Shown here: positions 15,804 to 32,256 of the stretch, piece by piece
How positions within the stretch are numbered: position 1 is the stretch's first letter
Layout: the number at the start of each line of letters is the position of its first letter
Origin: Patescibacteria group bacterium
Lineage (GTDB): Bacteria; Patescibacteriota; Patescibacteriia; UBA9934
Assembly (NCBI GenBank): GCA_041659765.1
Contig: JBAZXR010000001.1
Coordinates: forward strand, 531,338 to 595,337
Reading direction: 5' to 3'
DNA: 64,000 nucleotides
Program-made: the position numbers and the translations under genes
Notes under the pieces: model-generated
The model's database searches: none
What the model saw: only the letters and a program-made list of their open reading frames with translations
What the model was told of the DNA's origin: nothing

Positions 15804-18764
15804 TCACTGTACGGTAGCTGCCCCGATCCACGCTTCGGTGAACCCGACCAGGTCAGTGGCCGTGACGCCACCGGCGCAGAGGACGAACCCTTCGGTCGTA
15901 TTCCCAGCGGTCAGCCAGGTCACCACCTGCCGATCCGTACCGGCAAGCACGGTCGACGTCGAGTAGAGCTCTGTAGCGGCCACATGATCAACCACGTAGT
16001 CAGACAACCGATACACTCGGAGGATCTGTCCGTTGGTCGACGACTGGTTAGCGTAGTCGAACGTCATGGCGTACTTGTTCCCTACGCCCGCGGTAAAGGT
16101 GTACGCACGACACTCGTCCGCAATACCGGCCGCACCACCAGTGTTGTCAAAGTACGCAGCGTTCCGCGTACTCCCGAGCGTGGTGGTGAAAGCGAGCGGT
16201 CCAGTAGGTCCCCAAGTGGAGGGTCGACCGAGCGTGTACGAGTACGTCGTCCAACTTGAGAGCGCCCCGCACCCCATCGTCACGTCACACGAGTTGCCAA
16301 TGAGGTTCGGTCCCGTGAACCGAGCGACGAGCGCGCTGCCGGAAACTGCAAAGGTGGTCACTCCGTCCGTGTGGGCAAAGGTACCGTCACAGTTGTCATC
16401 AGACGCCGTCTTGGACGACTCCGCCACGCCCGGGTGGACGAACGGCGCACGGTCGTCACAGTCACCGGCGGCCGAAGCGTAGCCAACGGGCGCACTGCAC
16501 GCTTGCTTGGTTGGCGCAGATGTTCCGTACCCATCAGCGTCAAGGTCCTGGAAGAATGTCGGCATAACGCCTTCGTCAATCCCGGACCCGCAGTTGTTGT
16601 CTACCCCGTCGCAGACCTCTACGGCCCCGGGGTTCACGAACTTGTCAGTGTCATTGCAGTCCGTCGAGACGCTGGCGAACCCGGCCGGAGCCGAGCAAGC
16701 AGCAATAGTCGACGTCGGAATTCCGTACGCGTCTCCGTCACCATCCTGGTAGTAGGTGTTCTTCACGCCTTCGTCAACTGCAGTATCGCAGTCATCGTCG
16801 GCCCCGTTGCACGCCTCAGCGGCCACGGGATTGATCAGGCTCTTCGTGTCGTCGCAGTCCGTGCTGTTGGCTGCGAAGCCGACGGGCAGGCTGCAGGCGA
16901 GCGTGGTGACGAGCACGTTGCCGTACTGATCACCGTCTGTATCCGCGAAGTAAGTGTTCTTCACGCCTTCGTCAATTCCGCCTTCGCAGTCGTCGTCCAC
17001 CCCGTTACAGACTTCCGTCTTCCCGGGATTTACGCCGCTCTTGGCGTCATCGCAGTCAGTCGCGTTGAGCACATAACCCGCGGGCGGGCTGCACTGACTG
17101 ACGGATTTGGAGCTGTCCCCATAACCGTCATTGTCACTGTCCCGATAGTACGTGGCACTGCCAGTGGCGCCGTTATCCACGGAGCCGTCGCAGTTGTCGT
17201 CCTTACCGTTGCAGACTTCCGTTCCGGCAGGGCTGACGAGCGCAGTTGCGTCATCGCAGTCCGTGGAGGCGGCTACATACCCGGCCGGAGCCGAGCACGC
17301 TTTGGTCGAGGTGACTCCCCCGTACCCATCTTTGTCGCCATCCAAGTACCACGTCTTTGCGTCAGCAGCGTTGTCGTCGATCTTGCCATCGCAGTTATCG
17401 TCGAGACTGTTGCACACCTCCGTGGCGCTCGGGTTCACAGACTTGCTCGCGTCGTTGCAGTCGCTCTCATTGGCCACGTACCCGGCGGGCGGCGTGCAGG
17501 CTTCCGTAGAAGTCCCGCCGCCAAACCCGTCACCGTCCGTGTCCTTGTAGAACGTCAGCAAGACGCCTTGATCGATGACGCCGTCACAGTCGTCATCACG
17601 GTCGTTGCAGACTTCGCTCTCGTCCGGGTTAACGGCCGGACGGGCGTCATCGCAATCACCGTTCACGAGCGTGTACCCGGCCGGAGCCGAGCACGCCTGT
17701 TTGAACACGTCAGAACCGTAGTTGTCCTTGTCCGTGTCCTGGTAGAACGCGATGAGCGTCCCTTCGTCGATCCCATCCGCGCAGTTGTTGTCCACCCCAT
17801 CGCACACCTCTGTGGCGGCAGGGTTGACCTCAAACGCAGAGTCGTCGCACTCGAGACAAGCAAAGAAGCCGTCTCCGTCACCGTCCTCTGCGCCGTAAAA
17901 GCCGTCGCAGTTGAGGTCCTCCGGGTCCGTGCAACTCTCGGCCGCACCCGGATAGACTGCGGCATTCCCGTCATCACAATCCTTACTCTGGGCTGCGTAC
18001 CCTTCCGGCATCTCACAGGCCAGAATCTGACCAGACTTGCTGTTCGTACCAACTCCGTCCTGGTCAGCGTCCTTGTAGAACTTGTCCTGACCGATCACGG
18101 AAGCGTCTTCGTCGTCCACGAGCAAGTCGCAGTCGTTATCAATGAGGTCGCAGACCTCCTGTGCGACCGGATTGACGGTGGGGTTGTTGTCATCGCAGTC
18201 AACAAAGCCATCGAACCCGTCTTCGTCATCGTCTTTGATCTCCACCTCCGTCGTCTTGCCGTCGCAGTTCCGGTCGACACCGTCGCCAGGAAAGTCAGGA
18301 ATACTCGGGTTGATGTCAGGATCCGTGTCATCGCAGTCATCGGCGTTGTACACGAGTCCCTCAACTCCGTAGACCTCACAGCCCCAGAGCTCGGCACTGC
18401 CGTCTCCAAAACCATCACTATCTTTGTCCGCGTAGCGCGGCAAACGCTGATCGCTGCCCGCGTCTCCCTCCTCGCAGTCATTATCAATCCCGTCACACGG
18501 AATTTCCTCGACTGCCGGGAGGTCATTCTCCTCATCGGTATCACCATCCCAAACGTTCGGGTGAACCAACGCGTCATTGTCGTCGCAGTCATCAATTTCC
18601 ACGAAGAATCCATCGCCGTCCGCATCAACTAGCGGAATGTGATCCGGCAGGATCAACGCGCAACCAGAGAACATGAACGAAGCCATAACCAAACAGTTGC
18701 TGTAACGCATTGAAGCACCCCTAAAAGCTGTGGCTTGATAGCCGTTTTCGTAACTCAAGGCCAA
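15804..18764 (-). CDS. Large secreted Cys-rich protein with about 13 tandem MopE-like putative metal-binding repeats (CxDxDxxVNPxAxEVCNGxDDDCDGxxDEG). Lipoprotein-like signal peptide; the likely start is at an internal Met near 18710.
   Basis: Strongly periodic repeats are visible in both DNA and protein. The antisense 753-aa ORF is an artefact of the GC-rich repeats. Confidence 0.8.
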   Translation of the reverse strand: MALSYENGYQATAFRGASMRYSNCLVMASFMFSGCALILPDHIPLVDADGDGFFVEIDDCDDNDALVHPNVWDGDTDEENDLPAVEEIPCDGIDNDCEEGDAGSDQRLPRYADKDSDGFGDGSAELWGCEVYGVEGLVYNADDCDDTDPDINPSIPDFPGDGVDRNCDGKTTEVEIKDDDEDGFDGFVDCDDNNPTVNPVAQEVCDLIDNDCDLLVDDEDASVIGQDKFYKDADQDGVGTNSKSGQILACEMPEGYAAQSKDCDDGNAAVYPGAAESCTDPEDLNCDGFYGAEDGDGDGFFACLECDDSAFEVNPAATEVCDGVDNNCADGIDEGTLIAFYQDTDKDNYGSDVFKQACSAPAGYTLVNGDCDDARPAVNPDESEVCNDRDDDCDGVIDQGVLLTFYKDTDGDGFGGGTSTEACTPPAGYVANESDCNDASKSVNPSATEVCNSLDDNCDGKIDDNAADAKTWYLDGDKDGYGGVTSTKACSAPAGYVAASTDCDDATALVSPAGTEVCNGKDDNCDGSVDNGATGSATYYRDSDNDGYGDSSKSVSQCSPPAGYVLNATDCDDAKSGVNPGKTEVCNGVDDDCEGGIDEGVKNTYFADTDGDQYGNVLVTTLACSLPVGFAANSTDCDDTKSLINPVAAEACNGADDDCDTAVDEGVKNTYYQDGDGDAYGIPTSTIAACSAPAGFASVSTDCNDTDKFVNPGAVEVCDGVDNNCGSGIDEGVMPTFFQDLDADGYGTSAPTKQACSAPVGYASAAGDCDDRAPFVHPGVAESSKTASDDNCDGTFAHTDGVTTFAVSGSALVARFTGPNLIGNSCDVTMGCGALSSWTTYSYTLGRPSTWGPTGPLAFTTTLGSTRNAAYFDNTGGAAGIADECRAYTFTAGVGNKYAMTFDYANQSSTNGQILRVYRLSDYVVDHVAATELYSTSTVLAGTDRQVVTWLTAGNTTEGFVLCAGGVTATDLVGFTEAWIGAATVQ

Positions 18765-18900: not shown

Positions 18901-21900
18901 TTAGAAGACCAATGTTCCGCCGGAGACCGTGAGGCTGTCGACCAAGTACGAACCCCAGTAATCACCGGTGTTCGTAGCCGAAGCTGCGGAGTTAGTTCCA
19001 TCATCCTGCCAGAGCAAGGTGCCCGGGAGGCGCTGGATGTCGTCCGTAAGATCGTATGCCGTACCAGTGAGCGTAGCATCAGATGTGTAGATTCTGGAAC
19101 CAAGGTATCCACGAACAACGTAGAGGTTGTGAGTTGCGATACCGGTCACCAACATCTTTTCATCTGTAGAAGCCACCGTCGTAGCATCAGCCGTGCTGTA
19201 GTTGATCACATCGCCTACCTTGAAGGCAGTGCCGTCATCAACTGCGAGCGTGTTAGCCGTTTCCAAGAGATCCGTCACGTTCGAAGCGTCAGCAACGTTC
19301 AAGTACGTTGAAACGATTGGATCGGTCGGAAGATCGAAACGGATAGAGTCGTCGTTGGCTGAGCTTGCACCAGTTGAGTCAAAGTACACAGCGAAGTTAT
19401 TCGAGGTGCCCTTAGCTACAACCTCAGCAACTGGGAGCGCGATGCCCACAAAGCTGAGATCCTGGGTGAAGTTCGTAGTGTCACAAGCTGCACCTGTTGA
19501 CTGGTAAAGTGTCCAGTCAGCATCTGCAGTGTCCAACGTCTGAGACGTGCCATCCATCGTCAAGTTGTATAGATCGAAGTCGGCAGTCGTCGTTGCGACA
19601 GCTGGGTTATCCGTGTCACATTCGTTCCAGTCAACACTGGTAGCGTCTGTGTTGGAAGTGTCGTTATCCGTCAAAGTCACCTTGAAGAGCAGCTTGTTCA
19701 ATACTACGTCTTCGTTAGAAGAAGCAGCAACTGAGAAGCGGAGCACTTCAGAGCGGCCTGGAACAGCGCTACCGGAAGGTGAAGAGGAGCTGAGTGTAAC
19801 CACCGGCTTAGTTTCCTTAACCACGAAGGTAGGAACACTGTCGGTTGCGAACACATCATCACCAAGATCAGCAATTCCTGAAGCTGCCTCGTCAAGCGTG
19901 AAGCCAGAACCGGCTCCAGTTGCCTTGAACGATTCGCTGCCGGAGTTGTCTCCATCAGAGAAGGCCATACGGATCTTTTCGTTGCTGGTAGCGGAACCAC
20001 CAGAATCACGATCCGTAGGAGGCAAGTTCACGTAGACCTTAACATCCTTAGGTGTACCAACCGGTACGTACATCAATAGACCAGAGAACGTCGCAGCGTT
20101 TCCAGACATAGAGGCCGTAGCCGTACCCGTGGTGCCGTCGGCCTTAGGGTAAGAGAGGGTCACGAGAGAGATGTTGTTAGCGTAGACACTGGAATCAGCT
20201 GTAGAAGCCGTTCCAAGCATATCGTCTTCAGCCTGTTCTTCCGTGAAAGACAGCGTCTGAACGTTGAAGGATTCAAGTGTCGCTGCGAAGCGATACTGAG
20301 CTACTTCTACGTTGTTGGTACCTGTCAGCGCGAAGTCTGCGCTTGGGGTGCTTGAACCAACAGTCACTGAAAGCGTACCGGAATCAGATACCGTGACAGT
20401 GCGAGTAGGTGCAGTTCCACCGTTCACCGCGTTGCCCGTAGCTGTAACCGAGTTGCTTGAAGAATCTTCAGCTGTAATGTTGGTACCAGCCAAAGCGATG
20501 TCGAATGCGAAGAACGCATCGCCAGTCGTTGAGGTGTTAGCAAAGTTACACTGAACAGTCATGTTCTTAACGGCACCGGCTGCAATAGTCCAGCTCATGG
20601 TGCTGAAACGAATAGTCTGACCGTTAGTTGCTGGAGCTTCTGGACCGGCTACGCGCGTAACACCGTCATAGAGCGAGCAGGAGTCAACGTAATCGTTAAC
20701 GTCTGCGCTCTCAGAGGTTGTGCTAACGCCACCACCGATATCGTAAGTACCGCTCACAGACGTGTCCTGACCGTAAGCAGAAAGCGTCAGGTCAGTGATC
20801 GTTACTGGAGAAGCCAAACCAGTAGTCATAGTGAAGCCGACCACAGATACGTTCTGTGTACCGTCAACAGTGGTGACGCTGGTTGGCGTGCTGGCCAAGG
20901 AAACTACCAAGGAAGCCTGTCTGGCAACCTGGGTGTAACCAGTGATGTCTGAACCAGGGATGATATCCGCGGTAGCAAGAGCATCGCCGTTCGTGTCTTC
21001 CGTAACAAGACCACTCATGTCAAAGATGGCAGCAAGGGATTCACCAGAGGTGAGGCCGTTGTCTACGTCAGCCGTGACCGCCAAGTTCAATGTCTCACCG
21101 GCGTTCAAGGAGAAGTCATCTGTGAAGTCAATGATCTGAAGAGCGTCTTCTGCAGTACCAGTCAAGCTGGTTTCTGAAGAAGCGTCATCCGTAGTCGTGT
21201 CAAGCTCCAAAGGACCCATGATTACAGCGCCGGTGTCAGCGTTGATGATCTTGATGTCCTTCAAGTTAGCTTCAGAACCGGAGTTAATCAAACCGTCATC
21301 ATCAGCGTCACCAGTTTCCTGACCTTCTGTAACGGTGCCATCGTCGTCATCATCAGCAGCTACCTGGATGTCCAGGTCCTTAATGGTGATGAACTGAGTA
21401 GCCGTGACCGAGAATTTCAAGAGGGTCTGGTCCTGAGAATCTACCTGGACGTCGCCAGCAGCTGGGCCATTGAAAGCAAACGTAAGTTTGCCGCCCTTAA
21501 CCGTGCTGAAGGAACAGTTACCAGATGAAGATGTGCAGGAAGCACCGTCATAAGTACCAACGGTTCCGGTATCAACCGTGAGGCCGAATCCGAAGTCACC
21601 GCCGATAGCTACGATGTCAACATTGTTGTCGATGAACACCTTAACGGTGTCAGCTGACTGTCCACCAATATCCGCGGATACTGAGAAGATGTTGTTGCCA
21701 CCTTCATTGATGTGGAAAGGATGTGCGGAGAGATCAAAGACCACCCAGTCACCGGAGGAGTTAACACCAGTGGTAAGAAGAACACTGCCATCCCACAGAC
21801 GGAAGTCTGAGTGATCAGAAGCGTTGTCTACCTTAACGGTGATAGCGGAGATGTCAGCTGCTTCGGAGCCGTTAGCGGCTGCCTTGAAGGAACCGATTTC

Positions 21901-23154
21901 TGCATCCTGAGCGCCAACCGTTGGGTCAGCGATCGTGCCGGACTTTGTGATCAAGAGAGTTCCAGCATCAGCACCAGTGAAGGTGAAGATGTTACCCGTG
22001 ATTGGGAAGGAACCGCTCACTGATCCTGCAGACACTACGTCAGCAGAGTTGGCAACCTTGAAGCCGAACGTATCAGCTGCTACCTGGGAGGTGGAAGTGG
22101 TCACGCGCACCGTGTAGGTGTGCATGCTGTTGGCAGCGATGGAGCGGTTCAAGTTGTTGAAAGATACCTGGCGAGTGGAGGAGTTCACAGTGCGTGATTC
22201 CGTCAAACGCGTGCTACCTTCGTACAAGTAAACGCTAGAAATGTTGTTGGTGGAACCAGCTCCAATCATGGAGAGGGTTACGCCGCTAAACGTTGCTGCT
22301 GCGCTACCTGCCTGTACGTTGAAAGAAAAGACCTGCACGGAGTTCGATCCACCTGGGAGCGAAGCGCCGGCTGGCATGGAAGAAGCTGCGGAGACCGTCA
22401 GGCCGCCCGTAGAAACTACCGTACCAGTTACCGTCTGTGCGTCATCGGACACCGAAGCTTCCTTCGTGGTCAAATCTGCACCAGCGGACAAGGCACTATC
22501 TACAACACCGGCGCCATCCATGACGTACATGGACTGGAGACCGTTAGCTGACATACCAGCTGAGGATACCAAGCGCTTTGCACCATCCCAGTTAAGGTAG
22601 GTGTTTCCAGCACTCGAGTACATCATGCCGTTGTAAGCTGTTGCACTCATAAGAGATGCACCAACCGTGTAGTCCGTGAAGAAGACATCTGGCACGTCCA
22701 TGATGCGCTGGTTCCAGTCGGATCCAGCGTAAGCGACGGCCACTGCTTCTGTTTCAATCCAGTAAATCTTACCGTTGCGGCCTACTGCGTAGGTCTTCGG
22801 GTCAGAGGTCACCTTGATCCATGAAGAACCTGGGCGGAACACGATGTTGCCACCAAGAGTAATGTCAGAGATCGTGCTGTCAGAGACAGTCATGACGCCG
22901 CTGAAATCAGCTACGCCAGAGCTGTTGGAGTGCCAGCTTGAGTATGTTTTGAGGTTAGGGTACGTGTAGCGCATACCGTCATAACCGTAGTAGTAAACCG
23001 TAGAGAGCGAAGCGCTCCGGATACGGTCACCAGCGGCTGCAGCGTGCGTCACGGCTGGGCTCATAAGAGCACCGGCGCCAATCGAGAAAGCGATCGTCGC
23101 TGCAGCTACTGCGGCAGAGAGAGCGCGCTTTCCTGTTTCTAGAACATGTTGCAT
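18901..23154 (-). CDS. Giant (~1417 aa) secreted surface protein, rich in T/S/G/D and probably beta-rich. Putative adhesin or S-layer-like. The true start is likely MQHVLETGKRA at 23154.
   Basis: Long ORF with signal peptide AFSIGAGALMSPAVTHA and low-complexity, Ig-like repetitive composition. The ORF-track N-terminal extension (to 23355) runs through intergenic palindromes. Confidence 0.75.
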   Translation of the reverse strand: MQHVLETGKRALSAAVAAATIAFSIGAGALMSPAVTHAAAAGDRIRSASLSTVYYYGYDGMRYTYPNLKTYSSWHSNSSGVADFSGVMTVSDSTISDITLGGNIVFRPGSSWIKVTSDPKTYAVGRNGKIYWIETEAVAVAYAGSDWNQRIMDVPDVFFTDYTVGASLMSATAYNGMMYSSAGNTYLNWDGAKRLVSSAGMSANGLQSMYVMDGAGVVDSALSAGADLTTKEASVSDDAQTVTGTVVSTGGLTVSAASSMPAGASLPGGSNSVQVFSFNVQAGSAAATFSGVTLSMIGAGSTNNISSVYLYEGSTRLTESRTVNSSTRQVSFNNLNRSIAANSMHTYTVRVTTSTSQVAADTFGFKVANSADVVSAGSVSGSFPITGNIFTFTGADAGTLLITKSGTIADPTVGAQDAEIGSFKAAANGSEAADISAITVKVDNASDHSDFRLWDGSVLLTTGVNSSGDWVVFDLSAHPFHINEGGNNIFSVSADIGGQSADTVKVFIDNNVDIVAIGGDFGFGLTVDTGTVGTYDGASCTSSSGNCSFSTVKGGKLTFAFNGPAAGDVQVDSQDQTLLKFSVTATQFITIKDLDIQVAADDDDDGTVTEGQETGDADDDGLINSGSEANLKDIKIINADTGAVIMGPLELDTTTDDASSETSLTGTAEDALQIIDFTDDFSLNAGETLNLAVTADVDNGLTSGESLAAIFDMSGLVTEDTNGDALATADIIPGSDITGYTQVARQASLVVSLASTPTSVTTVDGTQNVSVVGFTMTTGLASPVTITDLTLSAYGQDTSVSGTYDIGGGVSTTSESADVNDYVDSCSLYDGVTRVAGPEAPATNGQTIRFSTMSWTIAAGAVKNMTVQCNFANTSTTGDAFFAFDIALAGTNITAEDSSSNSVTATGNAVNGGTAPTRTVTVSDSGTLSVTVGSSTPSADFALTGTNNVEVAQYRFAATLESFNVQTLSFTEEQAEDDMLGTASTADSSVYANNISLVTLSYPKADGTTGTATASMSGNAATFSGLLMYVPVGTPKDVKVYVNLPPTDRDSGGSATSNEKIRMAFSDGDNSGSESFKATGAGSGFTLDEAASGIADLGDDVFATDSVPTFVVKETKPVVTLSSSSPSGSAVPGRSEVLRFSVAASSNEDVVLNKLLFKVTLTDNDTSNTDATSVDWNECDTDNPAVATTTADFDLYNLTMDGTSQTLDTADADWTLYQSTGAACDTTNFTQDLSFVGIALPVAEVVAKGTSNNFAVYFDSTGASSANDDSIRFDLPTDPIVSTYLNVADASNVTDLLETANTLAVDDGTAFKVGDVINYSTADATTVASTDEKMLVTGIATHNLYVVRGYLGSRIYTSDATLTGTAYDLTDDIQRLPGTLLWQDDGTNSAASATNTGDYWGSYLVDSLTVSGGTLVF

Positions 23155-23330
23155 AAAGTTACAGAAACCATTTTCCCCTTTTAAGGGGTAAAGAGATAGA
23201 GGTTTGCACGGGCCTGCGGCCCCGACCTTTGAAGCGTGCTTACCCGGGATGCGTTGAACGCAGTCCCTTTCGGGAGGGCATCGTGCGATGCCCTGCCTGA
23301 AGGAAATGCCTTGCTCTATTCTGAGACGGG
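23155..23330 (-). other. Structured leader / intergenic region containing five consecutive GC-rich stem-loops.
   Basis: Palindromes CCCCTTTTAAGGGG (23177..23190), GGGCCTGCGGCCC, GCGTTCAACGC, GGGCATCGTGCGATGCCC (23276..23293) and the P1 element (23330..23349). Confidence 0.5.
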
Positions 23331-24476
23331 GACGGGGCAAGCCCCGTCCGTACAACTCGCTTCGCTCGTTGCCGCTTCGGCTTTGGCGGCTTCTTCCGCG
23401 GCCTTAGCGTCGGCTTCGGCCTTAGCTTCGGCGTCAGCCCTGGTCTGCATAATGAGGATTTCTGTTTCCGCAATGTTCGCCTCAAGTTTGAGCAGTTCTG
23501 CGTCTATCCCCTGGAGCGTAGCGAAGGCGCTTCTGTAACCACCGGCGGCGAAACCGTTCATAGCCTCCGGAATCTGTAGCTTGGTTTGCTTAATCACGTA
23601 GCTCAGTCTCTTTAGGTCATCGCCGGAAGGAATCCCCTTCACTCCGTCAAACATCTTCACTCCGAGCACCGTCTTGCTAATAGTGTCTAACCGATGCTCA
23701 TCGAAGGTTTGTCTGGCCTCTATAGATCCGAGCTCCTTAGTGAACATGGCCTTCAGTTCAACGGTTGATTTCTCTGTAGCTCCTTGCTCATGGACATCTA
23801 CCGCAACGGTAGTTGCGACAGTCTGCGCCTCCTTCACGGCCTGCTTTGCGTCAACGGTTTCCGTGCCGGCTGCTGAAGTTGAGTTGGTCGATGCCGTTTC
23901 TTCGATCACTGCCTTCATCGAGTCGATCTTATTCTGCACGTCAGTCACGACGGCGAGTGCCGTGGACGAACCAACACTGTCTTTCAAGTTTTTCAAATCG
24001 GCTGAGGCCTGAGAAAGTTCCGAGGCGTATTCCACCATGGCTGTCTTAGCGAGTGCCTGATGGCCCTCGTCCGTAGATCCTGATGAGCGAAGTTCTGCCG
24101 CTTCTCGCAATCTGCGCTCGGCGAACTCGGTATGGAGCACAGCGCGACGATCGAGCGACGCCAACCGAAGCTGAGCCTGTTCCGTAATACGTTTTACTGA
24201 GTAGAGGGTTTCGCCCGGCAAGCTCGACGAAGCCGCGCTCACCGTAGAAAGACTACCGGCAAAAAGAGTAACTGAAGCCACACCGATAGTTACCGGCTTA
24301 GAAATAAAAGAACTGACATACCAAGAGACGTAAGACTTGGAAGTCTGGCGAACTGGCAAGTCAGCGCTCACACGTGAAAGGAGGCGGGACTTAGCCGCGC
24401 CGTGCTCAGAAAGAGAAAGGGCCCCTGCTCGGGGATTATTTTTCAAACTCTTAAGTTGTGATAGAAGGTTCGACAC
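23316..24476 (-). CDS. DUF5667-like membrane protein, a candidate anti-sigma factor. It has a cytoplasmic N-terminus, one TM helix and a long helical extracytoplasmic domain.
   Basis: Motif PGETLYSVKRITEQAQLRL follows the TM helix. 26-nt overlap with the upstream ECF sigma gene. Confidence 0.6.
   Translation of the reverse strand: MSNLLSQLKSLKNNPRAGALSLSEHGAAKSRLLSRVSADLPVRQTSKSYVSWYVSSFISKPVTIGVASVTLFAGSLSTVSAASSSLPGETLYSVKRITEQAQLRLASLDRRAVLHTEFAERRLREAAELRSSGSTDEGHQALAKTAMVEYASELSQASADLKNLKDSVGSSTALAVVTDVQNKIDSMKAVIEETASTNSTSAAGTETVDAKQAVKEAQTVATTVAVDVHEQGATEKSTVELKAMFTKELGSIEARQTFDEHRLDTISKTVLGVKMFDGVKGIPSGDDLKRLSYVIKQTKLQIPEAMNGFAAGGYRSAFATLQGIDAELLKLEANIAETEILIMQTRADAEAKAEADAKAAEEAAKAEAATSEASCTDGACPVPVSE
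23330..23354. repeat. Palindromic micro-element, family P1 (GGACGGGGCAAGCCCCGTCCGTACA), forming the last codons (TDGACPV) of the anti-sigma-like gene.
   Basis: Same core and GTCCGTACA flank as 6446..6470. Confidence 0.8.
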
Positions 24477-25002
24477 AAAGTTCTTGGAGTGCTTTTTTGG
24501 CCCGGTGAAGGGTTACTCTGACATTATTCGGTGTCTGTTCAAGCGTACTCGCGATCTCGCTAATACTTAGCTCGTTCAAATACCTGAGCACTAGCACCTC
24601 ACGGTATTCATCCTTGAGAAGTTTCATCTTCTCTATAAGGTCATCGCTCTCCCCTTTCTGCGTGACTTCTTCAACCAAGGAACCGCTCGCAGGAACCTGT
24701 TCTAGCACCGAGTCCTCGACCACCTCCACCGGCGTATTCTTCCTATAGAAGTCCGCGGTGATGTTTCGGGCGATCCGGAAGAGCAAAGCTCCTACGTTAT
24801 CTACCGCACTCGACGTCATGTATTCCCAACCGCGGAGAAACACCTCGCTCGTGATCTCCTCGGCGTCCTCTTTGCGAGGGACCTTAAAGACCAGGAACCG
24901 ACGAATGCGGTCAGCATGGATGTCATACAACTCTCCGTACGCGTCCGTGTCCTTGAACCGGTACACGCGGAAGGCGAGGAATTTTTGACGGTAAGCTGAC
25001 AT
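24451..25002 (-). CDS. RNA polymerase sigma-70 factor, ECF subfamily.
   Basis: Region 2 (ITSEVFLRGWEY...LFRIARNITADFYRK) and region 4 (LKDEYREVLVLRYLNELSISEIASTLEQTPNNVRVTLHRAKKAL). Likely start MSAYRQKF. Confidence 0.85.
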   Translation of the reverse strand: MSAYRQKFLAFRVYRFKDTDAYGELYDIHADRIRRFLVFKVPRKEDAEEITSEVFLRGWEYMTSSAVDNVGALLFRIARNITADFYRKNTPVEVVEDSVLEQVPASGSLVEEVTQKGESDDLIEKMKLLKDEYREVLVLRYLNELSISEIASTLEQTPNNVRVTLHRAKKALQELCVEPSITT

Positions 25003-25089
25003 GTATGAAGTCGTTGTTAATCGGAAAACATTACAGTCTAGAGAAAATGTTGGCAAGATTAGCCACATGCCTCCTCTTGACCAGCTTTC

Positions 25090-25148: not shown

Positions 25149-25424
25149 ATGCAAACGCCCATTCGCCTCTCCGTTTCTGAAGCTTCGAAGCTATTCGGTG
25201 TCAGCCCGCGGACTGTTCGCCGTGCAGTCTCCGATGGAGCTGTAACCTATATAGTCGTTCAAGGGCGGTATAAAATTACATTCGAGTCCTTGCTCAAGTG
25301 GAGCCAAGAAACCACGACCGTCAAAAACAAGCTGAACAAGTCCGGTCTTGGCCAGTACGTTGGCCAGTGGAAGATCAAAAACAAACTCTACTCCCCCAAC
25401 CCAAAATCGCTTGAAAATGAGTAA
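25149..25424 (+). CDS. Small HTH DNA-binding protein (excisionase/MerR-like HTH_17). Its last 12 codons are identical to the end of the orphan RHS fragment.
   Basis: LSVSEASKLFGVSPRTVRRAVSDGAVTYI, a helix-turn-helix. The C-terminus is YSPNPKSLENE. Confidence 0.6.
   Translation: MQTPIRLSVSEASKLFGVSPRTVRRAVSDGAVTYIVVQGRYKITFESLLKWSQETTTVKNKLNKSGLGQYVGQWKIKNKLYSPNPKSLENE
25388..25424 (+). repeat. Left copy of a 37-bp perfect direct repeat (CTACTCCCCCAACCCAAAATCGCTTGAAAATGAGTAA).
   Basis: Identical sequence at 32185..32221. Both copies encode the ORF end ...YSPNPKSLENE* and are followed by a terminator hairpin. Confidence 0.9.
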
Positions 25425-25537: not shown

Positions 25538-28500
25538 ATGAGAAAGCTGCTTCGTTCGGGATTCATAGCAACACTCTGTGTGCTCGCAACTACCCTGCCG
25601 GTGCGTGCGATAGAACAAGACAGTTCGCCGTTTATCGCATCCACACCAGTTCGTGTTGCTCCAGAAGACTCTTCGGGGTCTTTTTCATATTCCTATCCCA
25701 TCTCCGTTCCACCCGGACGCAATGCCATGCAGCCAAACATTTCGCTATCTTATAACAGCGGCGTCGCGGATGACGCTAGTATTACGGGCTACGGCTGGAG
25801 CCCCTCAATCCCAAAGATTGAGCGGGTCAACAAACGCGGGGTCGACAAGCTTTACAACAGACACGACTTCACTTCTTCGCTTGGCGGAGAGCTGGTCGAC
25901 GTATTGTTGTCCGATGGTTCGCACGGAACCTATGCGGTCAAAGTCGAAAATGGAAATTTCCTTACCTACGTTTACAACACGAACGAAACCTGGACGGTGA
26001 CGGACATGCTTGGCACGCAATACACCTTCGGCGGGAGCAGCAACTCGCGGGTCATTGACCCTGCCAACAGTTCTCACGTCTTCTCTTGGTACCTCACAGA
26101 AACTCGTGACACGAATGACAACGTCGTCACCTACTCATATTCCAGTACCAATAACCAGGTTTATCCGAGCAACATTAACTATACTGGACACGCCAACACT
26201 GCCGGTATTTTTGACATCGCCTTTACTCTGGAAGCAAGCTCGACCACAAACGAATCATTCGCCACGGGATTCTCTGTAAAAACCGGCCAGCGAATTTCCG
26301 CGATTACCGTAAAAGTGAATAATACAAATGTTCGTATCTACGACATTAACTATACGGTCGGAGACAACACCACCCGACCGCTTCTTTCAAGTATCACAGA
26401 GACCGGGATAGACGAGGCTAGCAACAGCATCACTAAACCCGCTACCACGTTTACATATTCCGCAAGCCACCGGACCTGGACGGAAGATACGACTGCCTCT
26501 ATTCCTATTGCCATAGCGGCAGGAGGCGCGTCTAGCATCGGCACGTTTGTCTTTGATGTAAATGGAGATTCGCTGCCAGACATCGTAAAATCATTAATAA
26601 TTGACAACGGCGGCACGCCCATCATTGAACGTGGAGTATATCTGAACGATGGAAATAACAACTGGGTAGAAGATGCAGGCTACACCATTCCAGTCTATTT
26701 CGCTGGTAATGGCTATGACCAAGGCGTGCGCATCGCCGATTTTAACGGTGACGGCTATCAGGACATTTTGAAAGCGCGGAGAGATCAGAACACCGGTGTT
26801 TTATACAGCGAAGTCTATATCAACGATGGCGATGGAACTGGGTGGACCCAAGATACTACAGTTGTCATTCCTACAGCCTTTGATAACTCAACAAGGATTT
26901 TTGATGTGAACGGAGATGGTCTTCCTGATATTGTCTATGGACGAATGAATCAATGGACAGCTGCGATCGAGAGCGAGTTCTACATCAACAATGGCGACGG
27001 AACTGGCTGGACCCTGGATGGAAATTATGTACTGCCGATAAACATTTCCACTGAAAAGGGAAAAGATGCGGCGTTCCGAACGGCCGACGTCAACGGCGAT
27101 GGGTTAACAGACCTCCTGCAAGCCGTATCAACAACCAACGAGGTCTATATCAATAAGGGGAACGGAACTGGGTGGATCAAAAACACCAGCTACGTCATTC
27201 CCGCAACCTTCCTCGCGACAGGAAAAGATACCGGCACGCGGCTTCTTGATATTAACGGAGATGGTCTCACGGACGTCTTCCACTCTCGTCTTGACTCAAC
27301 AGGAAACCCTGAAAGCAACCTCTACATCAACCGGGGAGGAGAGGAGGGATGGGTTGAAGATACAAACTTTCAAGGAGCGCCGGTCGCCATGACTACCAGC
27401 GCTGGCGCTGACCGTGGCGTCCGAGAAGATAATTTCTCTGGATCGATGTTGACGGACTTCATGCACTCCGTTAGAACCGGAACGCCCGAGGTTCTCTATA
27501 CCTACCTGTTCGTCCAAGACGGAGGCAGGGGCGATCTTCTAACTAGCGTCTCATCAACAAGCGGAGCGACGACAGATGTAGCCTACACCTCTTCCACCGT
27601 TCCCAACCCCTCACTTCCTTTCTCTCTTCAAGTTGTCGATACCATCACGACGGATGACGGATTCGGGAATGTTTCAACGCAATCTTATACATACGAAAAT
27701 GGTTCATTTTACTACAACAATGAATACGACAGAAAGTTCGCTGGGTTCGGAAAAGTAACGACAACGGACGGGCTTGGAAATGTGACGATTAGCTATTACC
27801 ATCAGGGAAATACTTCGGACTCCGCTCATGGCGAAGCAACGGATGACGTCAGCAAGCTCCTACATCGCTATCGCGAAGAACAATACGACAGTAATGGAAA
27901 CCTCTATCGCACGACAATTGACACGTGGGTTAATACTGACATCGGAAATGGCAGAGACTTTGTCTACAAAACGCAGACACTGGTCATGGACTACGATGGT
28001 GATGCCGATCACCGGGATACTGCCGTTCGGTATACATACAATACGAACAACGGAAACCTCGTTGAGAAAATCGAGTATGGTCTTGGCACTGGAAACGATA
28101 ACGGATCCTTTACGGATTCTGGCACGGATGATCGGACGACTGCCTACGCCTACGCGCAGTGGACGAGCGGTGAATCCGGCTACCTGGCCTCCGAAACGCT
28201 CACGGATCATGTCATTGACACCATTCGCCGAACTACCAGGTTCTATGACGGGAACACGACTAACGCCGTAAGCATTGGCAACGTTACGCGAGAGGTGAAA
28301 AAGATTTCGGCTACTGAAAATGCGGAAACAAACTTCGCCTATGACGCGTATGGTTTCCGTACGGCAGTGATTGATGCAAATGGCAATACTACAACCATTA
28401 CTCCCGACGCAGTGGAACTCTATCCGGCGAGCGTCACAAACGATCTCAGTCAAGTCACTGAGTACGTCTATGATTACTCGTCAGGCAAGGTTATAGAGAC

Positions 28501-31210
28501 CACGGATGCGAACGGCTTCATCAGCCAGACGGTGCTGGACGGATTCGATCGTCCTATCACAGAAAAGAAACCAAATCCGTCATCGCCGGCGTCACTCTTG
28601 AACGTTCGCACGTTCTCATATGACGACGTAAGTTTCCCTTCTTCGATCCATGAATCAGACCTGTTCGACGGTTTAATACAGAAAGAAACCTACACGTATT
28701 TTGACGGTTTCAGCCGGCCAGTGCAGACCCGCGAAGAAGCGGCCAGCAGCTACAGCGTGATCGACACCGCGTATGACGAACGTGGAGATGTGAAGAAGGC
28801 CTCCCTTCCCTATTCTTCTGCCGGCTCAGGCCACACGAGCCCAACCACTACCGTCGCGCTCTACGAGACTTACGCCCGTGACGCACTACATCGTCTCACC
28901 AGCAAAACAAATGCTGCAGGAAGCACCGTCACGAGTTACGACGAAGGTATTTCAACAGAAACAGACGCGGAAAATAACACCAAGAAATATCACTGGGATG
29001 GTTTCGGTCGGCTCGAGAGTGTCATTGAAGTCATCGATGCGACCGAGCTCGAAACGTCTTACGAGTACGATGCTGCCGGAAATCTTACCGGACTAACAGA
29101 CGCGGAAAATAACATTCGCACGTTTGCATACAACGGCCTTGGCAACCGGACTGCGATGACTGATCTCCACGCAAGCGGCGATATTTATTTTGGCGAATGG
29201 AGCTACGGTTTCGATCCCCTGGGCAACATGATTCAAGCCGTGAGCCCGAACGGTGTCACCACTACCTACGCGTACGACGAGCTCAATCGCCTTAAAACAG
29301 AAAACGCCTCCGGCACTAGCGGCACAGACCTCACGTACACCTATGATTCCTGCACGAACGGTGTTGGCAAGCGTTGCTCCGCTGCGGTTCTGGGAGGCGC
29401 AACCACCGCCTACACGTATGACGCGTTGGGACGCACGGCGACTGAAGTAAAAACCATCAGCGGCATTGGCTACACCACCGCCTACGCGTACGATCGCCAG
29501 AACAACGTGTCGACCGTCACCTACCCAGACACCAGCACGGCAACCTACGCGCTCAATAGCGCCGGGCAGATTACTTCTGCAGCGTTCGATGACGTTCACG
29601 GAGCTCCCGTCACCGAAGTCAGCAGCATTACCTACGGTCCGCACGGCAAAGTGACGGCAGCTACTTACGGCAACGGAGTTACTTCCACCTGGAGCTATGA
29701 TGCAGCAGAGCTCTATCGCCTCCAGAACAAGACCACCACGTCAGGCACGAATGGCATCGAAAACTTCATCTACGGTTATGATAACGTAGGCAATCTTGCA
29801 ACACTCGCAGACGCTTCATCGCTCTACGGCAGCCTGGCCATCACCTACGGCTACGATGACCTCTACCGCCTCACGGGTGCCGACTCCGTCAGCGCAGACA
29901 GTGCGCTCGACTACACAAAAACCTGGTCCTACACGGACATTGGCAACATTGTCTCTTCCTCAGACAAGGGTTCTTATACGTACGGCGGCACAGCCTCCGG
30001 CAACTACGCCAACCCTCACGCCCCTACTCACATTGGCAGCAGCACCACGCTGACGTACGACTACAATGGCAACATGACCGGTGACGGGACGTGGACAAAT
30101 ACTTGGGATCATCGGAATCAGCTTCTCACTTCAGTAGACGGAACAACGACGGTCACTTATCAGTACGACGACGCTGGTAACCGTGTGGTCCAGGATGGCT
30201 CGGGTGCGACCAGAATCTATCCGAATTCGTATTACTCCGTAGACGGATCCAACGTCGATCGCAACATTCTCGTCGGCGCCCTCGGCTCCGTAGCCACCTC
30301 AAACTGGAATGGTACAGTCGACAGCATCACCTACCATCACACTGACCACCTCGGTGGAACCCATATTGAAACCAACGAAAACGGGGCTACGGTTGAGTAC
30401 ATCATCTATTCTCCATTCGGTGGAACGCTCGTTGACGTAAAAACCGGAGCGTATGAGAACAAAAACAAATACACAGGAAAAGAAAAGGATATAGATACAG
30501 GTTGGTATTATTACGGTGCACGTTATTACAATGCGGAGAATGGAGTATTCTTGAGTGAGGACCCGGTGTTCTTGAACATGGGAACTTCGAATCATGAGTC
30601 CGAACAGAAACGTGTACTTACAGATCCTCAGCTTGGCAACAGTTACGCATACGCACGTGAGAATCCAATCACATATGTGGACCCCAACGGAGAGTTCATC
30701 CCTGTACTGGTGGCCGGACTTCTAGCAATGGCTCCTGAGATCGCTACAACGAGTGCGATCATAGCGAGTGGCGTTGGAGTTGCGGTCTTGGGCAACGCCC
30801 TAGACGTCGCCAGAAATCCGAATTCAAGCATGGTCGAGAGGCTGATGGCTGGAGCAGACGTAGCGGGCATAATTACCCCGTTTGGTGCGACCGAAAGACT
30901 CGGCACCCAAGGCTTCAGATCATTCACCGCATTCAAACGATTTGCCGGAGCGGCGGGCGAAGGACGGCAATGGCACCATATCGTCGAACAAAGTGCATCT
31001 AATATTGAACGATTTGGAGGGCAGGCAATCCACAGTACAGACAACCTCATCAGTCTTCCAAAAGAAATCCATCAACAAGTCAGTGGATATTATTCTTCAA
31101 AAATTCCTGAACTAACCGGAAATCAAACGGTTCGAGAGTGGCTCAGGCCACAATCCTTCGAAAAACAGGTAGAATTCGGCAAACGGATGCTCGATAAATT
31201 CACCAAGTAA
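25538..31210 (+). CDS. RHS/YD-repeat polymorphic toxin, 1890 aa. Architecture: signal peptide, SpvB-like N-domain, FG-GAP/integrin-like repeats, YD repeats, an RHS core ending YAYARENPITYVDPNGE, then a C-terminal WHH-type HNH nuclease toxin tip.
   Basis: SFSYSYPISVPPGRNAMQPNISLSYNS...GYGWS (SpvB); repeated FDVNGDGLPDIV; many YDxxGN YD repeats; tip contains GRQWHHIVEQ...N...H. Confidence 0.85.
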   Translation: MRKLLRSGFIATLCVLATTLPVRAIEQDSSPFIASTPVRVAPEDSSGSFSYSYPISVPPGRNAMQPNISLSYNSGVADDASITGYGWSPSIPKIERVNKRGVDKLYNRHDFTSSLGGELVDVLLSDGSHGTYAVKVENGNFLTYVYNTNETWTVTDMLGTQYTFGGSSNSRVIDPANSSHVFSWYLTETRDTNDNVVTYSYSSTNNQVYPSNINYTGHANTAGIFDIAFTLEASSTTNESFATGFSVKTGQRISAITVKVNNTNVRIYDINYTVGDNTTRPLLSSITETGIDEASNSITKPATTFTYSASHRTWTEDTTASIPIAIAAGGASSIGTFVFDVNGDSLPDIVKSLIIDNGGTPIIERGVYLNDGNNNWVEDAGYTIPVYFAGNGYDQGVRIADFNGDGYQDILKARRDQNTGVLYSEVYINDGDGTGWTQDTTVVIPTAFDNSTRIFDVNGDGLPDIVYGRMNQWTAAIESEFYINNGDGTGWTLDGNYVLPINISTEKGKDAAFRTADVNGDGLTDLLQAVSTTNEVYINKGNGTGWIKNTSYVIPATFLATGKDTGTRLLDINGDGLTDVFHSRLDSTGNPESNLYINRGGEEGWVEDTNFQGAPVAMTTSAGADRGVREDNFSGSMLTDFMHSVRTGTPEVLYTYLFVQDGGRGDLLTSVSSTSGATTDVAYTSSTVPNPSLPFSLQVVDTITTDDGFGNVSTQSYTYENGSFYYNNEYDRKFAGFGKVTTTDGLGNVTISYYHQGNTSDSAHGEATDDVSKLLHRYREEQYDSNGNLYRTTIDTWVNTDIGNGRDFVYKTQTLVMDYDGDADHRDTAVRYTYNTNNGNLVEKIEYGLGTGNDNGSFTDSGTDDRTTAYAYAQWTSGESGYLASETLTDHVIDTIRRTTRFYDGNTTNAVSIGNVTREVKKISATENAETNFAYDAYGFRTAVIDANGNTTTITPDAVELYPASVTNDLSQVTEYVYDYSSGKVIETTDANGFISQTVLDGFDRPITEKKPNPSSPASLLNVRTFSYDDVSFPSSIHESDLFDGLIQKETYTYFDGFSRPVQTREEAASSYSVIDTAYDERGDVKKASLPYSSAGSGHTSPTTTVALYETYARDALHRLTSKTNAAGSTVTSYDEGISTETDAENNTKKYHWDGFGRLESVIEVIDATELETSYEYDAAGNLTGLTDAENNIRTFAYNGLGNRTAMTDLHASGDIYFGEWSYGFDPLGNMIQAVSPNGVTTTYAYDELNRLKTENASGTSGTDLTYTYDSCTNGVGKRCSAAVLGGATTAYTYDALGRTATEVKTISGIGYTTAYAYDRQNNVSTVTYPDTSTATYALNSAGQITSAAFDDVHGAPVTEVSSITYGPHGKVTAATYGNGVTSTWSYDAAELYRLQNKTTTSGTNGIENFIYGYDNVGNLATLADASSLYGSLAITYGYDDLYRLTGADSVSADSALDYTKTWSYTDIGNIVSSSDKGSYTYGGTASGNYANPHAPTHIGSSTTLTYDYNGNMTGDGTWTNTWDHRNQLLTSVDGTTTVTYQYDDAGNRVVQDGSGATRIYPNSYYSVDGSNVDRNILVGALGSVATSNWNGTVDSITYHHTDHLGGTHIETNENGATVEYIIYSPFGGTLVDVKTGAYENKNKYTGKEKDIDTGWYYYGARYYNAENGVFLSEDPVFLNMGTSNHESEQKRVLTDPQLGNSYAYARENPITYVDPNGEFIPVLVAGLLAMAPEIATTSAIIASGVGVAVLGNALDVARNPNSSMVERLMAGADVAGIITPFGATERLGTQGFRSFTAFKRFAGAAGEGRQWHHIVEQSASNIERFGGQAIHSTDNLISLPKEIHQQVSGYYSSKIPELTGNQTVREWLRPQSFEKQVEFGKRMLDKFTK

Positions 31211-31213
31211 TAC

Positions 31214-31609
31214 ATGAATATGAGTAATCAACTATCTCCATCAAACAAAAAAACGCTTCTCTTGAGCCTCAATACACTCATTCGAAAGAACGGTGCGGAA
31301 TCACTAAATAGGATCGCTAATAATGAATACGAGAAGCTATTCTTTTATCCTCCAAATGAAAAGCTAACGGGAACAGAATCAGAAATGTTAATAGCCCTCC
31401 AGAAGAATCCGGCCATCTATCCTGTACTTCAAAAAATTATCACAAACGAATCTGCACGGGTAATTTTTGAACTACTCAATTGGGTGGATGGAACCGGCGA
31501 TCCAGATGGACCATGGAGCGGAGTAGCTCTCGTCGATAGAACGAGTGATGAAGACACGGAGATGCTGCATGATGCATTCTTGGAGGCTTACTGGGAGACA
31601 CAATCCTGA
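31214..31609 (+). CDS. Candidate cognate immunity protein for the RHS C-terminal nuclease.
   Basis: 131-aa ORF starting 4 nt after the RHS stop, co-directional, acidic and small. Position and size are typical of polymorphic-toxin immunity genes; no family recognised. Confidence 0.5.
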   Translation: MNMSNQLSPSNKKTLLLSLNTLIRKNGAESLNRIANNEYEKLFFYPPNEKLTGTESEMLIALQKNPAIYPVLQKIITNESARVIFELLNWVDGTGDPDGPWSGVALVDRTSDEDTEMLHDAFLEAYWETQS

Positions 31610-31639
31610 TCCACCAAACACAAAACCACCCTCATGATC

Positions 31640-32220
31640 TCTACCTCCTCACAAATGCCGACTCCGTCAGCGCAGACAGTGCGCTCGACTACACAAAAAC
31701 CTGGTCCTACACGGGCATTGGCAACATTGCCTCTTCCTCAGATAAGGGTTCTTATACGTACGGCGGCACAGCCTCCGGCAACTACGCCAACCCTCACGCC
31801 CCTACTCACATTGGCAGCAGCACCACGCTGACGTACGACTACAATGGCAACATGACCGGTGACGGGACGTGGACAAATACTTGGGATCATCGGAATCAGC
31901 TTCTCACTTCAGTAGACGGAACAACGACGGTCACTTATCAGTACGACGATGCCGGTAGTCGTGTTCTTCGGGACGGCTCGGGTGCAGCGAGAATCTATCC
32001 GAACTCTTATTACTCGGTAGACGGCACGAATGTTGATCGCAACATCCTCGTCGGCGCTCTCGGATCCGTCGCAACATCGACTTGGAACGCTTCTACTGCC
32101 ACGACCATCTACCATCACACGGACCACTTTGGTGGAACACACGTCGAAACGGATGAGAACGGTGATGCAATCGAATACAACATCTACTCCCCCAACCCAA
32201 AATCGCTTGAAAATGAGTAA
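31640..32220 (+). pseudogene. Orphan RHS core fragment. It duplicates main-gene region 29860..30420, has no start codon at the homology boundary and carries only a 9-aa tip.
   Basis: About 330 bp are near-identical to the main RHS, then diverge. Ends EYNIYSPNPKSLENE*. The in-frame ORF 31852..32220 begins at an internal Met. Confidence 0.75.
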
Positions 32221-32221: not shown

Positions 32222-32224
32222 CAG

Positions 32225-32256
32225 AAAACCGTCGAGCTGAGCTCGACGGTTTTCGT
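32225..32256. terminator. Bidirectional hairpin terminator between the orphan fragment and the convergent GT4 gene.
   Basis: AAAACCGTCGAGCTGAGCTCGACGGTTTTCG. Confidence 0.6.

Follow-up and report, generated by a model that had tools for sequence, protein, structure and literature searches.

The WapA/WapI system of Bacillus subtilis is built on a Sec-dependent YD-repeat toxin of monoderm bacteria that carries tRNase tips and has no SpvB/propeller module, and WapA of Streptococcus suis is said to be a related Sec-dependent YD-repeat toxin. RHS toxins of the TcdB/TcaC export class combine a signal peptide with an SpvB domain and an integrin-like β-propeller (Zhang et al., 2012, PMC3482391). Here we analyzed an rhs gene and the small gene that follows it, at positions 25538–31609 of a 64-kb stretch of DNA (hereafter the window) from a metagenome-assembled genome (MAG) of a Patescibacterium. 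Going by descriptions of WapA, the locus shares with WapA-type systems a Sec-dependent RHS/YD protein, a tip of nuclease type and an immunity gene beside the toxin gene, with no special secretion machine, and it differs from them in the N-terminal module and the kind of tip named above. The TcdB/TcaC-type RHS toxins (PMC3482391) and the fused TcB–TcC cocoon of ABC toxins are closer, being alike in N-terminal module, shell, DPxG core, variable tip and downstream immunity gene; the present locus differs from these in having no TcA-like partner in the window, in its small-genome Patescibacterium host, and in tip and immunity gene families that have no curated model. On balance, we think it probable that the locus encodes a Sec-exported TcdB/TcaC-type toxin with an HNH-like tip, in which a 131-residue protein of a family we call imm131 replaces DUF2019, the usual partner of this tip. 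Papers on RHS or polymorphic toxins in CPR/Patescibacteria were nearly absent from the literature we searched, and the one paper joining the terms 'Candidate Phyla Radiation' (CPR) and 'RHS repeat' treats other organisms.

The rhs open reading frame (ORF; 25538–31210, +) encodes 1890 aa in an intact frame and corresponds to NCBI entry MFA5946973.1. An open frame of 1890 codons with domain E-values such as those given below puts a chance origin far out of consideration. The protein begins with a probable Sec signal peptide (aa 1–24; 25538–25609, +), which we called from a hydrophobic core at aa 4–26 in the hydropathy profile and from direct reading of the residues, with cleavage expected after VRA, between MRKLLRSGFIATLCVLATTLPVRA and IEQ. 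There follows a TcB-like N-terminal module (25673–27781, +) in which Pfam recognizes SpvB (aa 46–211, E 2.6e-21), FG-GAP_3 (E 5.5e-18; β-propeller repeats at about aa 399–581, underlain by a DNA repeat with a period of 165 nt) and TcdB_toxin_midN (aa 633–748, E 8.8e-16). The YD/RHS repeat shell (27782–30406, +) contains 11 stretches of RHS_repeat (PF05593, E 1.7e-28) and matches the NCBIfam models YD_repeat_2x (TIGR01643, E 3.4e-22) and NF041261 (aa 1111–1482). It leads into an Rhs-associated core (aa 1624–1719; 30407–30694, +) that ends in YVDPNGE, where TIGR03696 scores 63 bits over aa 1624–1718 against a cut-off of 32.5.

The end of the core reads ...ENPITYVDPNGE and closes on DPNGE (aa 1715–1719) in a PxxxxDPxG motif, after which comes a variable tip of 171 aa with an isoelectric point (pI) of 9.1; the end of the core at DPNGE is presumed, from the anatomy of the protein, to be both autoproteolysis site and toxin boundary. 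The RYYDPxxGRF motif reads RYYNAENGVF in this core, with its first acidic position changed, and homologs vary there too (DPD, RAD). With multiple YD/RHS repeats, the TIGR03696 core and a variable tip, the protein is almost certainly an RHS polymorphic toxin, and its signal peptide, SpvB domain and integrin-like propeller are those of the TcdB/TcaC export class. The Tc-toxin-like layout proposed in an initial annotation of this DNA, made from its letters and ORFs alone, is thereby borne out by Pfam and NCBIfam matches. The same annotation had put the C-terminal tip at about 170 residues and had pointed to GRQWHHIVEQ, TDNLISLP and EIHQQ within it, and all three strings are present.

The tip can be divided into a pre-toxin linker and a toxin domain. 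The linker (aa 1720–1788; 30695–30901, +) was delimited by hydropathy and by low confidence in an AlphaFold2 (AF2) model (predicted local distance difference test score, pLDDT, of 44–61 over tip residues 1–69), and its first ~40 residues are hydrophobic and modeled as helical, at that low confidence. The toxin domain, which we call the 'WHHIVEQ' family (aa 1789–1890; 30902–31210, +), corresponds to tip residues 70–171 and is modeled confidently (pLDDT 93–98). A word-index search returned 17 relatives of the tip, and the pattern WHHIVEQ[ST], run on one genome per species in GTDB, at least 294, mostly in Myxococcota, with further hosts in Bacteroidota, Acidobacteriota, Planctomycetota, Chloroflexota and Clostridia; three copies are plasmid-borne (Priestia, Ralstonia, Azospira). 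The domain is carried by RHS proteins, by SitA-like myxobacterial lipoproteins (lipobox LLSAC) and by a PT-TG pre-toxin protein (E 2.5e-10), a variety of carriers that marks it as a genuine polymorphic-toxin tip. Across 86 domains, W1812-H-H-I-V-E-Q1818, F1826-G1827, N1836, Y1852, W1868, Q1877 and G1881 are invariant, and S1853, R1866 and L1869 are each kept in 85; position 1845 is His in 82 copies and Asn in four, an HNH/HNN alternation. The key codons lie at 30971–30991 (W1812–Q1818), 31043–31045 (N1836) and 31070–31072 (H1845), all on the + strand. The family signature is therefore WHHIVEQ..FG..N..[HN]..YSS..VRxWL, with no conserved HxG, and the family is basic (median pI 9.9).

The AF2 model places the WHH on a strand (tip residues 91–95), followed by a helical insert of about 20 residues, a second strand after the Asn (118–122) and a helix bearing the His (123–133). 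This predicted topology is a ββα-metal arrangement, and the model has the features of a His-Me finger, namely a His at the end of the first strand, an Asn, and a His or Asn in the helix. The tip's N-to-H spacing of nine residues is one we take to be the same in ColE9 (N118 to H127). On these residues and this predicted structure, we regard the tip as quite likely to be an HNH-like nuclease, with a DNase as its probable form.

Membership of the WHH nuclease family, as the initial annotation had it, did not survive comparison with curated models. Pfam WHH (PF14414) gave no match to the tip at E≤1, let alone a score at its gathering threshold, and was rejected as the family of the tip; one of 18 relatives matched it, at E 0.16. 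The published Tox-WHH signature is 'WHH, L, H, HxG', with Imm-SUKH, Imm28 and Imm37 as partners (PMC3482391), and Colicin-DNase PF12639 is the family of the SitA1 C-terminal domain, a WHH-motif domain with DNase-like effects in E. coli (PMC5562445). The tip resembles Tox-WHH/PF14414 and PF12639 in having WHH at a strand end, a predicted HNH/EndoVII fold, and RHS and myxobacterial lipoprotein carriers. It differs in that neither Pfam model matches it, in that it shares the WHH of the published signature but has no conserved HxG, and in that its family's partners are DUF2019, imm131 and DMP19. Judged by sequence, the tip clade is distinct both from Pfam WHH and from SitA1's Colicin-DNase family, and NCBIfam holds no model for it or for the family of the 131-aa protein.

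We next consider the genes that accompany this toxin domain, found with our own hidden Markov models (HMMs) of the toxin domain, DUF2019 and the 131-aa family, applied to every retrieved locus translated in all six frames. Of 85 copies of the toxin domain in 79 genome loci (L014–L092), 84 have a DUF2019 (PF09450) homolog directly 3′, and with the other DUF2019-paired loci (L001–L004, L098 and L099) DUF2019 is the partner in 82 of 86 toxin-bearing loci overall, spanning many phyla. This position across many phyla makes DUF2019, a small HEAT-like protein (one copy has a sub-threshold HEAT_2 match), very probably the immunity protein of the WHHIVEQ toxin domain; the literature we searched assigns it no function. 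The exceptions are L005 and L006, which carry a truncated domain, L080, and the window. In L005 (1292–2443) and L006 (446–820), the domain (P0017, 124 aa), truncated at its C-terminus, lies between the genes for S3 and L16 in an operon of ribosomal proteins, with no immunity gene, and in L005 two small ORFs of unknown function precede it. In L080, from a Clostridia MAG (2846–4829), the gene after that of an RHS protein bearing this tip encodes not DUF2019 but a DMP19-like protein (PF14300, E 2.5e-12). DMP19 is known as a DNA mimic.

In the window, the slot immediately 3′ of the toxin domain is held by the candidate immunity gene, a 131-aa ORF on the same strand (31214–31609, +) whose ATG at 31214 follows the rhs TAA, which ends at 31210; both ORFs, including this start 4 nt downstream, are exactly as first annotated. 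NCBI places the start of the gene two codons later, giving a product of 129 aa (MFA5946974.1). The protein is acidic (pI 4.55), opposite in charge to the tip, and all-helical in an AF2 model (pLDDT 91) for which we found no fold match in the PDB. It had been described as matching no recognizable family, and the curated libraries (Pfam, NCBIfam) indeed returned nothing, but an exhaustive phmmer search of 1.84 billion representatives recovered 192 cluster representatives at E≤1e-3 (59 at E≤1e-10), overturning the orphan status suggested by a word-index search that had returned only the protein itself. These relatives, the imm131 family, are nearly all 110–175 aa long and acidic (median pI 4.6). 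We also considered whether imm131, which occupies the same slot, might be a diverged DUF2019, and rejected this: they are not homologous by profile–profile comparison (hhalign probability 0.3% with either of two DUF2019 profiles, built from 4 and from 92 sequences), and the 131-aa protein has no Pfam match.

Three independent observations link imm131 to the toxin. Besides its adjacency to the tip in the window, imm131 occurs in a natural fusion, P0150 (275 aa; L012, 1425–2252), that joins an imm131 domain (aa 2–134, E 2.8e-37) to a DUF2019 domain (aa 163–272, E 6.7e-36; 26.9 bits with the Pfam model, cut-off 23.3) on a short contig with no toxin adjacent. The third is the Priestia megaterium plasmid pFDU301A (L099, 2675–5185), where three genes stand consecutively, the first for a toxin that combines a PT-TG pre-toxin domain with this nuclease-like tip, the second for DUF2019 and the third for imm131; this is the sole other locus found that links the toxin with imm131. 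A search with a 5-sequence imm131 alignment gave only four metagenome loci, none with a toxin, and plasmids gave no tblastn match to the window imm131 or to P0204. Members also occur in poly-immunity-like arrays, in Cohnella with CdiI_ImmP, DUF5071 and DUF6933, and on Priestia pB1.3 with ankyrin, DUF2711 and DUF6678 genes.

The 3′ part of the locus carries a footprint of recombination. Downstream of the immunity gene lies a displaced piece of rhs shell (31634–32220, +) of 186 codons, equivalent to aa 1441–1626 of the RHS protein, which stops at the codons for YSP, precisely at the point at which an Rhs core domain should start, and has no core, tip or immunity gene of its own. Repeat comparison showed that a tract of the intact gene (29878–30170, +) is 98–100% identical to 31656–31948, and that downstream of this near-identical tract of ~290 nt, identity drops abruptly to ~77% until the start of the Rhs core. 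Such a break within the shell is the footprint expected when a 3′ cassette has recombined in and displaced the old end. By this comparison, a cassette of ~1.46 kb (~30171–31633), made up of shell end, core, tip and immunity gene, appears to have arrived as one piece. The position of the immunity gene inside the cassette, together with its outlying composition (GC content 0.42 vs 0.52 for the window), supports the tip and the ORF having traveled together.

The displaced fragment is fused in frame to 37 nt from the 3′ end of the gene upstream of rhs, which encodes a 91-aa HTH_17 protein (25149–25424, +; Pfam HTH_17, E 2.8e-8; MFA5946972.1, named 'excisionase family DNA binding protein' by NCBI) and ends 113 nt before rhs. 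The two copies of this 37-nt repeat (25388–25424 and 32184–32220) match exactly and flank the entire rhs unit at a distance of 6796 bp from each other; the repeat had two matches in the actual sequence and none in 100 shuffles. A deletion at microhomology (CTACTCCCC) against a second copy of the HTH_17 gene could explain the fused tail. By reasoning only, neither a simple tandem duplication nor a single crossover at the YSP microhomology reproduces the observed gene order. There is no integrase between the 37-nt copies, and a phage attachment (att) site was set aside as unsupported, the repeat having no match in viral contigs.

Although the 131-aa ORF had been called the obvious immunity candidate, and adjacency, cassette, fusion and the Priestia array all speak for it, several observations weigh against this role and against the proposed nuclease, and we considered them together. 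The near-universal partner of the toxin domain is DUF2019, not imm131, and no imm131 member occurs in the 79 toxin genome loci. Most imm131 members are solitary in variable regions, by insertion sequence (IS) elements, restriction-modification or toxin-antitoxin genes, or between housekeeping genes; many are stand-alone genes among housekeeping or mobile genes, and a toxin of the WHHIVEQ family is lacking from the surroundings in about 15 of 17 other contexts. In the Priestia plasmid it is DUF2019 that is directly beside the toxin, with imm131 second. The 131-aa ORF might then be an orphan or hitch-hiker belonging with another toxin or function, with protection supplied by a DUF2019 elsewhere or absent altogether. 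The HMM found no DUF2019 in the window, the 64 kb of the 897-kb genome that this search covered. We nonetheless consider the hitch-hiker explanation unlikely, since the gene sits within a recombination-delimited cassette, 4 nt from the toxin stop, the fusion and the Priestia array tie imm131 specifically to this toxin/immunity system, and L080 shows an unrelated protein able to take the place of DUF2019. With moderate confidence, and from sequence relationships, we favor the 131-aa protein as the cognate immunity protein of the tip; its position and its linkage within the cassette are in place, and neutralization would be the function that goes with them.

The tip itself could be something other than a nuclease, its WHH...N...H residues serving another metal-dependent or binding activity and its likeness to HNH proteins being superficial. 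All matches to HNH models and structures indeed fall below significance, and we found no significant sequence or fold match between the tip and any solved or curated HNH protein. HNH_2 was the sole Pfam near-match to the tip scanned alone (16.3–16.6 bits, E 0.007–0.009, cut-off 21) and the only one to recur in the family (three of 18 members, best E 0.0015); Pfam gave no match to Colicin-DNase PF12639. PDB sequence searches with the tip and the family profile returned chance matches only (Hsp90, superoxide dismutase), and Foldseek searches of the PDB gave IscB, Cap5, SspE-CTD and Cas9 as the best matches, none individually significant; the best Foldseek E-values were 0.28 to 0.86. The helical insert between the two strands also speaks for a superficial likeness. 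An alignment to the ColE9 DNase (a query that matches PDB 1bxi_B over its full length, at 298 bits) was rejected as support for HNH: hhalign of the toxin profile gave a probability of 9% and left the HNH motifs unaligned, pairing instead ColE9 FKSFDDFRKA (residues 46–56) with FRSFTAFKRFA (30911–30943, aa 1792–1802), a resemblance just before the WHH that, at that probability, is possibly due to chance. Several features argue against a non-nuclease tip. Its residue pattern and N-to-H spacing are those usual in HNH proteins, the last motif position alternates between H and N in the family, the predicted topology is ββα, the pI is basic, and the partner found in L080 is of a DNA-mimic type; HNH proteins are also enriched among the weak fold matches, HNH endonucleases making up most of the named matches in the top 50 from BFVD, again with none individually significant. 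An HNH fold, as the initial annotation read it from the spacing of these residues, therefore remains the best reading of the residues and model, with its profile and fold matches sub-threshold, and we think a different activity improbable. Less probable still, and in our view very unlikely, is that no working weapon is encoded here, the locus being a remnant in decay or without function or, in part, a chimera of strain variants made in assembly. A shell fragment that is truncated and oddly joined in frame to a second copy of the HTH_17 gene's 3′ end would fit decay, and a near-identical 290-nt repeat within 1.8 kb could mislead assemblers. However, the 1890-codon frame is intact, all family-invariant residues are kept and the core domain scores above its cut-off; the junctions at 31610–31655 and at the 37-nt repeat have unique flanks and are, we infer, shorter than usual assembly k-mers; and displaced 3′ fragments are established as normal at active rhs loci (PMC3482391).

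From the architecture, family relationships, linkage, recombination footprint and host observed here, taken with established Tc/Rhs biology, we infer how cleavage, delivery, nuclease activity and neutralization might proceed. Sec would export the RHS protein, whose shell, or cocoon, would enclose the C-terminal 171 residues, and the Rhs core would cut the chain at DPNGE. Contact with a target cell would release the tip, which would cross the membrane, possibly aided by its hydrophobic first ~40 residues. Its C-terminal 102-residue domain would then act as a metal-dependent HNH/His-Me-finger nuclease that cuts nucleic acid, with H1814, at the end of strand 1, as the catalytic His, N1836 before strand 2, and H1845 in the next helix as a metal ligand. 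In the producer, the acidic, helical 131-aa protein would block the tip, taking the immunity role non-homologously to DUF2019. The cassette would have entered by homologous recombination in the rhs shell, displacing the former 3′ end and leaving the 186-codon fragment. Candidate targets are rival episymbionts or the host bacterium.

The assignment of the DNA to a Patescibacterium agrees with the public record, in which all three proteins of the unit (MFA5946972–74) are entries of a 'Patescibacteria group bacterium' MAG and lie on a contig of 897,219 bp. The initial annotation had also noted the absence of a type VI secretion system (T6SS) and the question of a paired secretion route. We found no T6SS gene in the 64 kb, and no type VII (T7SS) or type V (T5SS) secretion genes or TcA-like gene there either, so that the nearby pentameric injector of an ABC (Tc) complex is likewise missing from the window. 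Neither the gap from rhs to the 131-aa ORF nor that from the ORF to the shell fragment has a predicted terminator-like site; a strong hairpin comes after the three, a GC-rich 14-bp stem (32224–32254) that closes the unit and is common to a convergent glycosyltransferase gene.

Elsewhere in the window lie genes for the cell envelope and for sugar nucleotides, housekeeping genes that include glycolysis enzymes, a release factor and FtsW, an extracytoplasmic function (ECF) sigma factor, and large surface proteins. A block on the opposite strand (18901–25068, –) adjoins the HTH–rhs unit in divergent orientation. It contains the ECF-type sigma factor (24451–25068, –), a DUF5667 protein, possibly the anti-sigma factor that pairs with it (23316–24476, –), and a 1484-aa protein of secreted or surface type with no Pfam match (18901–23355, –). 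The other large ORFs are a MopE-repeat protein (15804–18764, –; 986 aa) whose 11 repeats of MopE type (Pfam E 2.6e-94) are putatively metal-binding, in a stretch with a GC content of 0.61 vs 0.52 for the window, and a subtilase (Peptidase_S8) fused to FG-GAP repeats (12898–14979, –), the second FG-GAP propeller protein of the window.

These results leave the general picture of RHS biology unchanged. What is new is the host lineage, a toxin clade that has no model, and the replacement of DUF2019 by an unrelated, equally unannotated family. A bolder possibility, which we consider improbable as a whole, is that imm131 is a second inhibitor of WHHIVEQ toxins, structurally unrelated to DUF2019, that has spread widely among Bacteroidota, Bacillota and other phyla as a 'pre-emptive' orphan immunity gene, and that the RHS DNase is aimed at the host bacterium, not at sibling episymbionts. 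Reduced episymbiont genomes generally cannot make nucleotides. Were that joint reading true, the toxin would damage the host or harvest its nucleotides. The locus offers a concrete, clonable toxin/immunity pair from a Patescibacterium and gives two unannotated families a testable role, DUF2019 as the standard partner of the toxin domain and imm131 as an alternative or additional one. With three unrelated partners, DUF2019, imm131 and a DMP19-like protein, for one toxin domain, the family may serve as a small system for studying how immunity converges on a single enzyme.

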